From assembly GCA_964016885.1 (NCBI GenBank), contig OZ024740.1, positions 36,270,001 to 36,334,000 on the forward strand: 64,000 nt of DNA. Reading direction: 5' to 3'. Both the position numbers and the translations under genes were made by a program. The DNA is from Eledone cirrhosa (lineage: Eukaryota). Shown piece by piece: positions 159 through 61,811 of the stretch (within the stretch, counting starts at the first letter, position 1; every line of letters starts with the position of its first letter). The notes beneath the pieces are model-generated. The model had not been told where the DNA came from, ran no database searches, and saw nothing but the letters and a program-made list of their open reading frames with translations.

Positions 159-423
159 TTGAAATAAGGAAAAGAATGACTTCACTTGTTCTAAACTGAG
201 CTCAGTTTGACAATCGCCACCGACAAATGCGAGAAAGCTCTCCACGAAAGTTAACCAGGAATCTTTAAAAAATCTCCCCACCGAAGTTAACAAAGAACTT
301 ACTAGATCTACAAAACTAAATCGTAAATTATATCATAAAATTAAATTGTTTAGAACAAGTGAAGTCATTCTTTTACTTTTTGCAAATATACCTAACTTAC
401 CAAGGATTTCACACATTTTCCAA
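159..423 (+). mobile_element. Short non-coding pLTR-like element with 27-bp inverted repeat, between TA and CA tracts
   Basis: aaaagaatgacttcacttgttctaaac (170-196) is inverted at 348-374. The element is homologous to the reverse complement of 13510-13790. Confidence 0.55.
203..317 (+). ncRNA. Degenerate hammerhead-like motif (UUGACAA core)
   Basis: UUGACAA, stem II UCGC/GCGA, GAA, stem III AG(C)UCU/AGA(U)CU, CUA triplet. Stem I pairing is poor. Confidence 0.35.
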
Positions 424-603
424 TACACACACACGCACACAAACACACGCACGCACGCACACACACATACACACACACACACACACACACACACACACAC
501 ACACACACACACACACACACACACACACACACACACACACACACACACACATATATATATATATATATATATATATATATATATATATATATATATATAT
601 ATA
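424..603. repeat. (CA)n(TA)n compound microsatellite
   Basis: Directly visible. Confidence 0.97.
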
Positions 604-658
604 AAATAAAATAATTAAGTCAAATATTTAAAATTTGGCTACGTTTATTAAAGATGTA

Positions 659-711
659 CTGCTATATATATTTCGGAGACAGCCATCATTGGCTCTGACC
701 TCTTCAGGCAG
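659..711 (-). ncRNA. Type I hammerhead ribozyme
   Basis: CUGC-CUGAAGA-GG..AGCCA/UGGCU..CC-GAAAUAUAUAUA-GCAG, with AAUAAA just downstream. Confidence 0.75.
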
Positions 712-841
712 CAGTCCGAATTGGTGTGGTAGAGACAGGTATACATGTTGTTAAAGTGTTTTACTCCGTCAATACTCCGATATGTCCAGCTCCTGGTTGG
801 GTTGTTATTTCTCTGAGGAACTGGAATCATATGAATTCGAA

Positions 842-1208
842 CAAACGAATTTCGGCATCATAGGACACTCTCTCCCCCCATTGGTCAGTTGTGAGAACAT
901 TCCTCAGTCAAAAGTCTATAGAAATTTTTTTCTGGGGCATAACAACCTGTTGTGGTTGTTTGGTAGGATTGATGCCAACCCACACACACTAATTCTTCTA
1001 AAGACAGCAGCAGTAGAACTAAGGCTAACCTGTCAGCTAACCCTCTAACACCAATAAACACAAGGGAGGAGGTCAGCTGTACTTATCAAAAACAACCACA
1101 ACAGATTGTCTTGCCTCAGAAAAAATTTCTATAGACTTTTGACTGAGGAATGTTCTCACAACTGACCAATGGGAGGAGAGAGTGTCCTATGATGCCGAAA
1201 TTCGTTTG
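842..1208. repeat. Inverted repeat with ~120-bp arms (842-961 / 1090-1208), fold-back pLTR-like element
   Basis: caaacgaatttcggcatcataggacac...gttgtggttgttt is mirrored at 1090-1208. Confidence 0.85.
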
Positions 1209-1650
1209 CAAATTGAAGACAGCGACCGGTAATTCAGCCGCGGGGACCGTAGCAACGAAAGAACTGACTCGCGAGAAAACATACATACATATATATATAT
1301 ATACACACACACACACACACACACACACACACACACACATTCACATATATATATATAATTGAACCACATTGGCATATGGTGGAAAATACATGCGTCCCTA
1401 TACGCTTTTTGCGTGTAAGGATATATACTTTATTATTATTATTCTCCTCTTAGTCGAGATGAAGTTTGGTCGTTTTGACTGCTGCTATTTATAGTGGTAG
1501 TAGACTGACCTCCCTGCCTCTGCTTCTATCTTTACACACGGTACTGGACAGAATTGCTTCCACATCATTCATTCTCATCTCGGGAACAATTTTGAATAGC
1601 GCCAGTTCGTAATTTGAAGTCGGGAATTTTATATTCTCCGAGTGAAAAGA

Positions 1651-1737
1651 ACCTTCTGGCGAGAGTTTATCTTTTCAATGGAAGACCGCGAGGACTGTCC
1701 ATTTATTTTTGAGACTCGAAACCGATTCGGTAAGGGT
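1651..1737 (+). ncRNA. Type I hammerhead, A6G core variant
   Basis: ACCUU-CUGGCGA-GAGUUU..AGACUC-GAA-ACCG(AUU)CGGU-A-AGGGU. Confidence 0.7.
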
Positions 1738-58129: not shown

Positions 58130-58169
58130 GCACCTACGTACGTTTCGCCCAGTTGGGCTTGTCAAGGGC
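58130..58169 (-). ncRNA. Minimal hammerhead, U3-A8 core
   Basis: GCCC-UUGACAA-GCCC(AACU)GGGC-GAA-ACGUACGU-A-GGUGC, with AAUAAA downstream. Confidence 0.8.
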
Positions 58170-59390
58170 ATAAATAACGAACGTTATAGTAAGCCATACC
58201 TATAACCGATCACGCGGCGACTTCTTAATAGGAACAATATAAAAATATCCTTCTCTACTACTCCTAACCTAGCAGACATCATAGGAACAACGAACCACAG
58301 TAAGATCACCAAGACACAGCACCTTAGCACGGACGCACCTACACCTGACAATAACTATATCGGCCTTAACAACTCCCTAGCAGCATCCAATAGTGCTGGC
58401 AACGGCCTGTACAGACGCAACCAGCATAACCGCGACATGACTGGGGAACATGCAGGACATGACCTGCGGAATAATAATCGTACCACCCCGTGCACTGTGG
58501 GTTGTAATGGTGCTAACGACAGGTGCGGGAGCGTAGATAGCAACAATGATGGCCTAACGATGAGAAGTGGAAGGAACCGCGACAGAAATTGCAACTGCCG
58601 CGACAGAGGACGCTTCCCCCTTAGAGGAGACTGCTTGACTGATAGGGTTATATATAGATGCACTGTAACTAGCCACAATAGCGTTAAACATTATATAGGG
58701 GTTACCTCTGGTCCGTTCATAATTAGATTTCGAACACATCTCCACTCTTTCATAAATAAGAAATTAAGACACCCCACTTCGCTCGCGGACTACATCACAT
58801 CATTAAAAGACTTAAACATCAGCTTCTCCACACACTGGGATATTATCGGAAGGGCTGCACCGTACAACTTCAAGAGGAAGTGCGATCTTTGCCTCATGGA
58901 GCTCTACCACATCATAACTGCACCCCACGAGCTCATCAACAGCAGAGCTGAAACGACGATAGGTTGTACACATCGCTTAAAAATATCCTTCTTCAGATAG
59001 GTTAAGGATGAGGAGTGAAACCGTGTACCGGGTCTCCCTGCAACAAGCTTTAACACCCCGGCGGGCAGGCGCTGCAAAAAAAAAAACATCCAGGAAACTA
59101 ACCATGCATCCCAAACCCAGCCTCAAACGACCCAGGCGAGCAGGTGCGGATAAAAAAAATAAGCGTTGATTACCTGACCCTGTGCATATCGGCAATGGTA
59201 AGGTTGTAACCACATCTTGTAACGGATACAAATTTGTCCGGGAAAGACTGCCCTAACACCGGCCAGAGTTACCTCCCTTGACCTACTGCAAAATCAAAAC
59301 ACGCTTTTTTTGCGAAGAATGAATTATAACGTTAAACTTAATCCCCAAAACACTTTCCGAACAATGTAGGGAACATTTTTGGTTATTTAT

Positions 59391-59430
59391 GCCCTTGACA
59401 AGCCCAACTGGGCGAAACATACGTAAGTGG
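59391..59430 (+). ncRNA. Minimal hammerhead, U3-A8 core (mutated copy)
   Basis: gccc ttgacaa gcccaactgggc gaaacatacgta agtgg. Confidence 0.7.
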
Positions 59431-60372
59431 TGTTTTAAATAAACATGTTTTAACGGTCTGTTCTCCGATTTCTTACTTTTCCACGTATATATATATATAT
59501 ATATAGAGAGAGATATAGATATATATATATACACACACACACACATATATATACATATATTCACAAACATGCCCAGTCACACAGACACCCATATGTGTAA
59601 AAGAAATCATACAAACATACTATTGTGTTAGAATGAAAACATACAGTCTTTTAAAAAAATAATATAGATGGATCTGTTGGAGATGCGACAGGAGGAGTGA
59701 AAGTCAAACTGTTTCAAATAGAATCTGGCGGATGGTTAATAGATTGTCCGTAGTTGAAAGCTGACCACAGAAAGGTATATTCCGAAAGCAAGGATGTATG
59801 AACAAGTTGGATACGCAAATATATGTGTGTGTGTGTGTGTGTGTGTGTGTGTGTGTGTGTGTGTGTGTGTGTGTGTGTGTGTGTGTGTGTGTGTTTACGC
59901 GTGCGTTTTACGTTGTGTAAGATGTTATGTACTATTCCGTAGTACATACATGGGAAGGTCCCTACGTATGTGTGCGTTCAAATAATTGCTAATTTGTACA
60001 TGCAGAGTGGGCTCAAAAGTCGGTTCACATGTTCAGCAAATCGCCGGGCCGCCCCAGTGCACGGGTGGGTCTGACTCCCATTGTCTGTATGCACCATGCA
60101 CTCATTAAGCTCCTATCCGGGAAAACTCAGCGCAGAAAAAGTGCTATTTCGGTGGTGCCTGCAAGCCATGATGATCTCGGGCTTGAAGTTAACCAAATCA
60201 TGTTTTAATTTTACTATCTCCATGTCTTCCGCCACACAGAGTTTGCAACGGCCAGCGCCCACTGAATACGCGGCAGCGCGTTGCACTGTACTCCAGTACG
60301 TATCTTTACTGTAGGGTCGTATCCTTTTATTTTTTTTTAAGTACCCACTGCCTCCATATCACTACCATTTTT

Positions 60373-60561
60373 AGTGGATTGGCAGTATCGGTAGAGAGTC
60401 GGACGACGTGCTTTCCAGCATAGTTACGTCCCTTTACGGTCTGAATTCAAATCCCACCGAGGTTAACTTTGCCTTTCAAACTTACGGGGTCGATAAAATA
60501 AAGTACCAGTAATGTACTGGGTAATTGCTGGTCTTGTGCCAAAAGTAGAAACAATTATTAT
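60373..60561 (+). mobile_element. tRNA-derived SINE
   Basis: Same family. Confidence 0.85.
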
Positions 60562-61530
60562 TGCCATCACGACTACCTACAAAAAGGTGAATGAGATGGC
60601 ATTGACTGAGATCAATGTGGCCGGAAAATGTTAATTCTAACCACCCCAAAACATCACAGATAACTTAGTAAAAAGCGTGTCAATTAGAATCTCTGGCCTC
60701 TCGGCCAATAAAGATATCTTTAACGCCTCTGCCTCCTACTACAACGACGCCCTCGCCCGCAGCGGATTTAAAGAAAAGATCACCTACCTACAAACCACCC
60801 CCAAGACTACCTAGGAGGAATAGGCATAGGCATATTAGATGGTACACCCTTCCCCCTTCAATAGAGAGGTCACTACACCTATAGCTAGGACTTTCTTCAT
60901 TTTGCTGAACAGACACTTCCCCATACAACATAGGTACTACACTATCTTCAATAAGAACACAATAAGACTCTCCTACTCTACTACACCTAACCTAGCTAGG
61001 AATATAGCCAATCTCAACACTAAAAAAAATTAAATAAGCCTACTACCTCCGAGCCCAATCCCCGGACTGGAGCCTTTTGTAACTGCCAAAATAAGGAAGC
61101 CTGCCCACTTGAAAACAAATGCCTGACAAATGATATGTCATCAAATGTGATGTCATCTCAGGCACCGATAACGACAACAACAAAAAGACTTACATCAGCA
61201 TGACTTCCAATAATTTTAAGAACCGGTGGTGTGCCCATACCCACTCTTTCAGAAGACTGGACAAATCAAATCAGACAACACTCGCCTCCTATGTCTGGGA
61301 CGTCAAAAGGAAATCCAGTCCCTTCGCGCTCAAATGGAAAATACTCCAGAAAGCGCGCTCATACAAGGGAGGACACAAGTGCTGCGACCTTTGTATTTCA
61401 GAGAGCTATGAAATATTATTTGCCAAGGGCCCGCTACTGAAGAAACTCTCTGAACACTGCCCGAATTGCATGCACAAAAACTTTGCAACTTTCAAATACC
61501 TTAAGCCAGTGTTAAATGCCAGATGGCTAA
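60562..61530 (+). pseudogene. Hydra-like PLE 3' fragment
   Basis: Paralog of 24813-25730; CNCQNKEACPLENKCL, CCDLC. Confidence 0.85.
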
Positions 61531-61766
61531 AAATGATTTTCTTTTTTAAAAAAAAACCCACTCGACAAAATACCCCCTCCACCTCCTTCCCACCATACCA
61601 GTACCCACTCTCGACGGTACTATGGTTATGTAAGTACTTCTTACCTATCTGCTTTTTCCACATGTAGAGCGTACTTTATTTTTATACATTTATGTGTGTG
61701 TATATGTATATATATATATATGATAAAGAACACAAGAGCGTCTACAACATCAAAAGATTTTTATTG

Positions 61767-61811
61767 GCTTACAATGTTTCTTCCTTACGTAACCGTAGGA
61801 TTCGTCAGAGC
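61767..61811 (-). ncRNA. Minimal type I hammerhead
   Basis: GCU-CUGACGA-AUCCUACG(GUUA)CGUAAGGAA-GAAACAUUGUA-AGC then CAAUAAAA; same stem III as 23743. Confidence 0.75.

Follow-up and report, generated by a model that had tools for sequence, protein, structure and literature searches.

The stretch of DNA analysed here (the window) is 64,000 nucleotides long and comes from the octopus Eledone cirrhosa (GenBank assembly GCA_964016885.1, contig OZ024740.1, positions 36,270,001 to 36,334,000). It contains 21 complete type I hammerhead ribozyme motifs, five damaged copies and six halves. Very probably, most of these motifs lie in the 3' terminal repeats of Penelope-like elements (PLEs), and a non-coding retrozyme family among them, F4, was likely inserted by PLE enzymes from a circular or uncut multi-unit RNA. 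The type I hammerheads in the pseudo-long terminal repeats (pLTRs) of PLEs, their variability and the solo copies left by truncated elements have been published (PMC4209133), and the bulk of the window motifs is of the kind described there in 2014. What is new is evidence on how animal retrozymes move. Retrozymes are published too, and their mobilisation by PLEs has been proposed, with the mechanism left open (PMC7229834; 10.64898/2026.07.22.740005).

F4 is found twice in the window (4241-4804 and 31124-31744), and both copies map onto a closed unit with a period of 433 bp, which has 36% GC and a longest open frame of 69 aa. A second subfamily has units of 462-466 bp and occurs as dimers and one trimer. 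The tandem units each carry a complete type I motif (L064 and L083 for the 433-bp unit; L096, L237 and L239 for the 462-466-bp unit), and the two window copies have one motif each. The motif has helices of canonical size and a U.U base in helix II. No sequence outside the unit is common to the flanks of independent insertions, as judged from the arms of 83 loci, a good part of which are short matches of low complexity, and none of 127 PLE-type protein queries gave a tblastn match to the family. With its short non-coding unit, low GC and tandem motifs, F4 is a non-coding, tandem-monomer retrozyme. Its insertions lie in (TA)n and extend past one unit across the predicted cut site, which falls after unit position 211. 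At 24 of 25 loci the longest arm is more than one unit long, but these loci are top matches, so that long copies are favoured. The 5' ends are spread across the whole unit, and the 3' ends cluster at two points separated by 56 nt, with 33 arms ending at unit position 1 and 26 at unit position 57. In 12 of the 14 insertions with two arms there is one end of each kind, as in both window copies.

A second retrozyme family, with a unit of 312 bp (35% GC, no open frame of 80 aa), is found elsewhere in the genome (loci L133, L246 and L309-L343, e.g. G000:C1:412428500-412434200). It is a young family, with copies that are mostly 97-100% identical and form dispersed arrays in TA tracts; older relatives with the same tail region are found at L169:6950-7257, L205, L218, L236 and L110. 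The tandem units in L324-L343 each contain a complete type I motif. Among 20 insertions selected from the best matches, the 3' ends lie at unit position 172 (17 arms) or 197-205 (17 arms), about 27 nt apart, and in all 14 insertions with two arms the two ends differ in kind. A single arm can be as long as 7.2 units, and 33 of 34 arm ends adjoin TA.

Purified PLE protein has been found to start reverse transcription at two internal RNA sites, the "tail" being the stretch between them (PMC11167929). Both the F4 and the 312-bp families carry this signature: two fixed ends, one per inverted arm, are what the PLE tail looks like, so the retrozymes were likely mobilised by PLE enzymes. In the proposed mechanism the PLE endonuclease would nick (TA)n, reverse transcription would begin at the two internal sites that bound the tail, and it would then pass through the ribozyme and either stop early or flip strand. 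Motifs with a short palindromic helix III would cleave as dimers, and self-cleavage followed by ligation would yield the retrozyme circle. Measured from the predicted cut, the proposed start sites are 222 and 279 nt downstream in F4 and about 141 and 168 nt downstream in the 312-bp family, and a retrozyme copy crosses the ribozyme from one to seven times. Because the cut is predicted after unit position 211, a cut linear F4 monomer would offer at most 279 nt from the start sites. With the start sites so placed and the ribozyme yet crossed, the template cannot be a simple cut monomer read once. What is left is a circular RNA, a multimer that stayed uncut, or a monomer copied repeatedly through template jumping. 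A circle seems somewhat the better candidate, because private variants occur in all units of an insertion and because circles of animal retrozymes have been published.

The alternative that survives best has retrozymes copied from uncut multimers, or from a linear monomer with template jumps, so that the ribozyme is a passenger and no circle is needed. It shares PLE mobilisation with the best explanation and differs in the template alone, and we regard it as a real possibility, if on the doubtful side. Uncut RNA is the main substrate of purified PLE protein (PMC11167929), the genome contains dimers, trimers and arrays of more units, and a test for variants shared within F4 insertions was null. 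On the other side, the 312-bp family has 25 variants that recur in all units of the insertion concerned, some of them private to that insertion (e.g. 7 of 7 units in L327, 6 of 6 in L328), so that one unit must have been copied repeatedly at some step, and animal retrozymes are reported as circles (PMC7229834). Several findings weigh against insertion by PLE enzymes from a circular or multi-unit RNA, or against parts of it. Ribozyme cleavage was unnecessary for insertion by the purified protein, and no RNA ends were seen at the cut site (PMC11167929); of nine retrozyme dimers, eight did not cleave (10.64898/2026.07.22.740005). The 25 shared variants of the 312-bp family are outnumbered by 138 singletons and 16 partial ones, and in the F4 test 10 of 185 variants were common within an insertion, compared with 6% between insertions. 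A partner PLE was sought by tail similarity among the loci compared, and only the older 312-bp relatives were found. An ORF-bearing parent (ORF, open reading frame) of F4 was likewise not found among the best 40 of 2322 candidates, which leaves room for a rare one.

The PLE origin of most other motifs can be followed outside the window. Ten families were searched genome-wide, with 535-3,911 candidates each, of which the best 40 were scored. Seven of the ten (F2, F3, F5, F6, F8, F11 and F12) lead upstream into a PLE ORF at other loci, so that their window copies are 5'-truncated or inverted PLE ends, of the kind described in PMC4209133. F3 (49726, 3675) terminates an element that has an intact ORF of 830 aa at L032 and also occurs in partial tandems and inverted pairs. 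Copies of F2 have more than 1.5 kb of upstream sequence in common, with an ORF at 16459-19152, and F6 terminates a PLE that is present at 24837-25700 and in L237. Upstream of F5, F8 and F12, two or three loci per family have sequence that matches PLE reverse transcriptase (RT) or endonuclease. The link of F11 is a weak point, with a PLE ORF upstream at one locus only (L231), and no PLE parent was found for F15 or the family at 203 among the best-scored loci. Two alternative 3' ends followed by TA are present in most families, though not in F6, and partial tandem pLTRs, 5' truncation, inverted 5' copies and an optional tail at one end are all seen. The initial annotation had placed the PLE hammerheads in pLTRs, in sense orientation and in elements that target (TA)n, and all of this is borne out.

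Single ORFs with RT and C-terminal GIY-YIG motifs are present, and the fragments in the window match Pfam GIY-YIG and, weakly, RVT_1. The protein P0001 has no Pfam match but carries RWK-like, DKT, CxCX5C linker, CxxC and CxH motifs, and the F9 ORF has the CxCX5C linker, CxxC and CxH. Both correspond to the description of the Hydra clade, an assignment made by motifs rather than by an RT tree, and ORF-bearing parents mostly have the same kind of motifs; the F1 ORF is of Neptune/Nematis type. For one PLE protein the best named relative is from Argonauta hians (41% identity), and a ctenophore protein has 37%. Some elements have 3' regions of several kilobases, mainly microsatellite-like and common to copies (L032:4275-8737 and window 25860-29840). 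There is also a PLE ORF fragment at 14871-16160 on the minus strand, with a CX4CxxC linker recognised by eye, for which no hammerhead was located.

It had also been suggested that the many carriers without an ORF form a retrozyme-like ecosystem. The first half of this holds, as non-coding retrozymes with 433-bp and 312-bp units do exist, but for the many ORF-less carriers in general it is not supported. That most of them are themselves non-autonomous, retrozyme-like elements is improbable in our view: seven of the ten families searched lead to PLE ORFs, only two of the 21 complete window motifs lie in a demonstrated retrozyme, no tandem unit was found for F15 in 20 loci, and F4 makes up 4 of 51 motifs sampled outside the window. 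The suggestion draws on the two retrozyme families, on single periodic hints in more clusters (about 450, 470-480, 530, 590 and 660 bp) and on F15 and several clusters for which no parent was found. A still less probable view, to which we give very little weight, is that the tandem families are satellites grown locally by unequal crossing-over from one PLE end, with no RNA-based spread. Local amplification after PLE insertion has been raised before (10.64898/2026.07.22.740005), but here the same unit junction, the two 3' ends and the TA flanks recur at dispersed loci on many contigs, and the 5' ends spread across the whole unit and the inverted arms are also difficult to reconcile with it. The fixed 3' ends largely refute it.

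The motif count rests on a descriptor for type I hammerheads, with core boxes CUGANGA or UUGANAA, GAAA and UH arranged around three helices and open at helix I. It was loosened stepwise, as the first versions missed motifs with a bulge, a mismatch or a long helix II. A full three-helix parse was obtained at 21 of 27 hand-picked anchors. Five anchors fail (3675, 28118, 28742, 59395 and about 27339, the last with GGA instead of GAA), and 203 parses only with a 2-bp stem I and was rejected as a complete hammerhead because it lacks a proper helix I. Among the 21 are three with a core decay mutation, a lone candidate whose core has a mismatch, and F9 with its A4; a further six sites have the GAAA-helix III-UH half alone. 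The 15-17 families in the window include 15 with a complete motif. The figure of about 25 hammerheads in the initial annotation is thus right if damaged copies are counted, and so is its figure of more than ten families; all seven positions that it named have a type I motif in sense to the neighbouring PLE ORF, that at 59391 being damaged and that at 48857 having A4. Its description of the stems as unrelated went too far, since the ORFs of the families at 19389 and 49726 are about 75% identical and 20034, 30282, 36625 and 57601 are related.

The window is AT-rich, with many TA and CA tracts, and the descriptor was tuned on it, so chance folds in repeat-rich DNA have to be considered. At a score of at least 28 the window gives 13 matches, compared with a mean of 0.15 (maximum 2) in 40 local dinucleotide shuffles and none in the reversed window; with one core mismatch permitted the numbers are 17 and 0.35 (20 shuffles). 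The fair test is a set of 79 stretches of 10 kb outside the window, at round coordinates of large contigs, a systematic sample in which unplaced contigs were skipped. Here there are 51 matches, compared with 2.75 in shuffled and 1 in reversed sequence, so that the shuffled controls proposed earlier give a far lower density both inside and outside the window. Palindromic helix III occurs in 27 of the 51, though the descriptor did not require one, the position of the motif is fixed near the 3' ends of elements, and positions 3 and 8 covary (C3-G8, U3-A8). The hammerhead motifs are real. Chance is a negligible explanation of them as a group, even with weak single-motif folding and the absence of Rfam matches at gathering score counted in its favour, and it may apply to 33227 and 203.

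Alignments of F4 and of the F15 group have 96.9% and 94.6% of their helix cells paired, above all of 500 shuffles in both cases, and at most 57% when the partners are slid. The rows were selected by flank homology and picked by hand or by rule (19 of 49 distinct F4 sequences; 14 of 49 with a core box), and they are related, so the level of pairing is support rather than a probability. Core statistics come from a corpus of 1.31 Mb, made up of the window and the loci, which is enriched for the families searched, so that its counts are not independent events. It has 361 strict-core matches in 53 clusters, 29 of which are in at least two loci. With positions 3 and 8 left free, there are 245 C-G, 71 U-A, 6 C-A, 4 U-G, 1 A-U and 0 G-C, and most of the mismatches are single mutated copies of known families. 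The stem covariation that had been proposed as a check is present in this sense. The structural evidence also has its weak side: the covariation in F4 reduces to a small number of independent changes, a U-G/G-U switch and a single distant row, single motifs have folding z-scores between -1.8 and +1.0 in nine of ten cases (the tenth -2.3), and their minimum-energy fold is seldom a hammerhead. Weak folding of single motifs is expected because the helices III are short, but it remains a weak point. For the F15 group RNAalifold recovered the outer helix II, with an alternative helix I.

No Rfam family matches the window at gathering score. An e-value scan gave 237 matches, and the 150 listed are microRNA and small nucleolar RNA models on TA repeats. 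Tested singly against the Rfam hammerheads, 4380-4600 has no match and 23730 has one sub-threshold match, to HH9 (27.7 bits against a gathering score of 52). The motifs are in this sense invisible to standard models, as had been supposed; failing the gathering score limits the Rfam label and not membership of the type I class.

Several motifs depart from the usual core. In F9 (48856-48908), a young family, A is found at core position 4 in 27 of 27 copies; the main text of PMC3088659 nowhere uses the term U4A. Reading the same site (48857) as a new core with G5C was rejected, as helix I pairs only in the U4A register, and G5C at 24103 was rejected as a private mutation of one copy. Among the 51 outside motifs G10.1-C11.1 is found in 15, no pair at that position in 13, and a helix II of more than 40 nt in 14. 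The motifs at 2470-2618, 19382-19539, 49715-49871 and L284:812-931 belong to related families with a helix II of 70-125 nt. Its base retains a C.A mismatch and two pairs, and its distal sequence is divergent. Variants such as these may reportedly be included already among the dimeric PLE hammerheads of Lunse et al.

The outside sample has a net density of 0.61 motifs per 10 kb (bootstrap 0.42-0.81), or about 61 per Mb, which extrapolates to about 1.8x10^5 motifs (1.3-2.4x10^5) in the 3.0-Gb assembly. The window, with 2.2 motifs per 10 kb, is 3.6-fold richer. The strict-core threshold misses some families, e.g. 19 of 20 F6 copies. The 51 sampled motifs fall into 28 clusters, from which a rough richness estimate of about 100 families is obtained. 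As a comparison, 126,247 motifs are given for axolotl and more than 6,000 in 16 families for Acropora millepora, with other descriptors (PMC7229834).

How these elements relate to known systems depends on the feature compared. As in Cervera and de la Pena 2014 (PMC4209133), the motifs are located in pLTRs, mostly as solo copies, with inverted pairs and many families per genome, and the U3-A8 covariation, the palindromic helix III and an insertion between positions 9 and 10.1 (here in F1) are alike. The differences are the density, about 61 per Mb compared with totals of about 4,000-9,000 in coelacanth and Xenopus tropicalis (the descriptors differ); the G10.1-C11.1 pair, which is highly conserved there and present in fewer than a third of the outside motifs here; and the long helix II and the one family with A4. 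Animal non-LTR retrozymes (PMC7229834; 10.64898/2026.07.22.740005) are also non-coding tandem monomers (here 312 and 433-466 bp, 35-36% GC) with a canonical-sized type I motif per unit, and the U.U base of helix II is shared with axolotl HHR_Amex2. In those papers the link to PLEs comes from co-occurrence and pLTR similarity, whereas here the insertions show the two-site tail, with one site on each inverted arm, and (TA)n targets; expression and circles are shown there, while the octopus families are known from DNA sequence alone. The Hydra-clade PLEs (PMC8557442) have the same motifs (RWK-like, DKT, CxCX5C, CxxC and CxH), (TA)n targets and hammerheads, but are generally shorter than 3 kb, whereas F3 has about 4 kb of microsatellite-rich sequence between the end of the ORF and the hammerhead. 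Poseidon PAc of Anolis (Frangieh et al. 2024, PMC11167929) likewise has two alternative 3' ends, AT-rich targets and copies that span the ribozyme. Its tails are 30-40 nt; in the octopus genome the 312-bp family has a tail of 27 nt, F4 one of 56 nt, and F2 and F3 have tails of up to about 138 nt, and here the signature is also on non-coding units. A literature search, judged from listings and abstracts, gave no paper on octopus or cephalopod hammerheads or retrozyme tails, although the supplements of the 2014, 2020 and 2021 papers may list cephalopod or mismatch variants. The main text of a 2026 octopus repeat annotation (PMC13282606) has no ribozyme, hammerhead or retrozyme. The features of the window are listed in Table 1.

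Table 1. Hammerhead motifs, retrozyme insertions and PLE ORFs in the window, by position and strand
Position	Strand	Feature	Remarks
203..260	+	Doubtful motif	U3-A8 box and helix II; helix I unpaired beside the core in 15 copies read
656..714	-	F5 hammerhead	Truncated and inverted PLE 3' end (~602-1260)
1650..1738	+	Hammerhead with one core mismatch	Intact relatives in L013
2470..2618	-	F2 hammerhead	U3-A8 core, long helix II; half copy next to it at 2377
3540..3681	-	Damaged F3 hammerhead	Helix I 5' strand lost at inversion junction
4241..4804	-	F4 retrozyme insertion	Minus arm of ~1.2 units with short-site end; inverted arm with long-site end; TA tract
4455..4499	-	F4 hammerhead	Helix I of 6 bp; hexaloop on helix II, U.U at its base; helix III palindromic; cut predicted at 4462/4461
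5053..5099	-	F1 hammerhead	pLTR downstream of ORF 5311-8491
5311..8491	-	F1 PLE ORF, two frames	RT, CX4CxxC linker, GIY-YIG (Neptune/Nematis-type)
9136..9182	-	F1 hammerhead	pLTR between two partial-tandem copies
13244..13290	+	F1 hammerhead	On inverted arm, downstream of ORF 11530-12864
16459..19152	-	Broken F2 PLE ORF	GIY-YIG match; preceded by pLTR 19204-19928
19382..19539	-	F2 hammerhead	In upstream pLTR
20034..20086	-	F6 hammerhead	4-bp hairpin helix III; truncated PLE end
23740..23783	+	F7 hammerhead	1.6 kb downstream of PLE ORF fragment 21407-22120; sole Rfam match (sub-threshold) of two motifs tested singly
24012..24109	-	F12 hammerhead	G5C here, family has U3-A8 core; halves at 1880, 29266, 29298
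24837..25700	+	5'-truncated PLE ORF	Microsatellite-rich 3' region ends in F6 pLTR 29843-30342
27245..27345	-	Damaged hammerhead	GAA replaced by GGA (read by eye); undamaged relatives in L042, L044
28114..28156	+	F1 hammerhead, helix III broken	Centre of inverted pLTR pair 27883-28294
28735..28815	+	Candidate	Both core boxes, palindromic helix III, weak helix II; no full parse
30276..30326	+	F6 hammerhead	Helix III partly broken
31124..31744	+	Second F4 insertion	85-88% to the 433-bp unit; long end on the inverted arm, short end on the main arm
31472..31516	+	F4 hammerhead	Compensatory change in helix I; predicted cut after 31509
31794..31861	-	F15 hammerhead	C3U in this copy; no parent ORF or tandem unit found
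33227..33305	+	Single-copy candidate	One core mismatch; no relative among loci compared; may be chance
33935..34012	-	F8 hammerhead	Truncated and inverted PLE end
36580..36633	-	Decayed F6-related hammerhead	Related half at 57601
45787..47929	+	F9 PLE ORF, two frames	Hydra-clade motifs (CxCX5C linker, CxxC, CxH)
48856..48908	+	F9 hammerhead	A at core position 4; predicted cut after 48902
49715..49871	+	F3 hammerhead	116-nt helix II; cut predicted after 49860; inverted tail 49651-49703; 3' end of PLE with intact 830-aa ORF at L032
58130..58170	-	F10 hammerhead	Inverted arm ahead of ORF fragment 58206-59000; intact twin of 59391
59391..59430	+	Damaged F10 hammerhead	Downstream of ORF fragment
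61766..61812	-	F11 hammerhead	A.A at helix II base; long 3' region

Some other repeats in the window and the loci are worth recording. Directly upstream of the F9 ORF is a repeat (45300-45780) with a CUGANGA box on the minus strand, and none of the 7 relatives listed, out of 19, gives a hammerhead parse. Two palindromic inserts are found nearby (44847-45049 and 44058-44312); the former has CUGANGA boxes on both arms, no GAAA box and no relative among the loci compared. Clusters 5, 8, 13, 15, 20 and 23 show period hints of about 450, 1180, 590, 530, 470-480 and 660 bp respectively, and could be further retrozymes or local tandems. About 11 copies of a SINE-like repeat (SINE, short interspersed element) of 190 nt, several in tandem, are found at 20751-20940, 35573-35773, 36746-37550, 38013, 38649, 51348-51709 and 60374-60562. 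Broken LINE-type elements (LINE, long interspersed element) with AP endonuclease and RT matches lie at 41005-43900 and 52556-54747, and a minisatellite with units of about 20-21 bp and extreme GC skew at 54890-56160.

A bolder reading would see in this genome the densest hammerhead load described (about 2x10^5 motifs in perhaps 100 families), with several young retrozymes that are rolling-circle copied from self-cleaved, ligated circles by (TA)n-targeting PLE proteins, the two-site tail as a general way of recognising from sequence that PLEs move animal retrozymes, and the U4A and unpaired 10.1-11.1 cores as active natural variants. We put this forward tentatively, with chances a little short of even. 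Which enzyme spreads animal retrozymes has been an open question, and PLEs were proposed only from co-occurrence and the similarity of repeats. Here, two retrozyme families bear an insertion signature that has been traced biochemically to PLE reverse transcription, and a family that is 98-100% identical, together with an intact 830-aa PLE ORF in the same genome, brings an experimental check within practical reach. The genome moreover holds a large stock of natural hammerhead variants that are unannotated and missed by Rfam.

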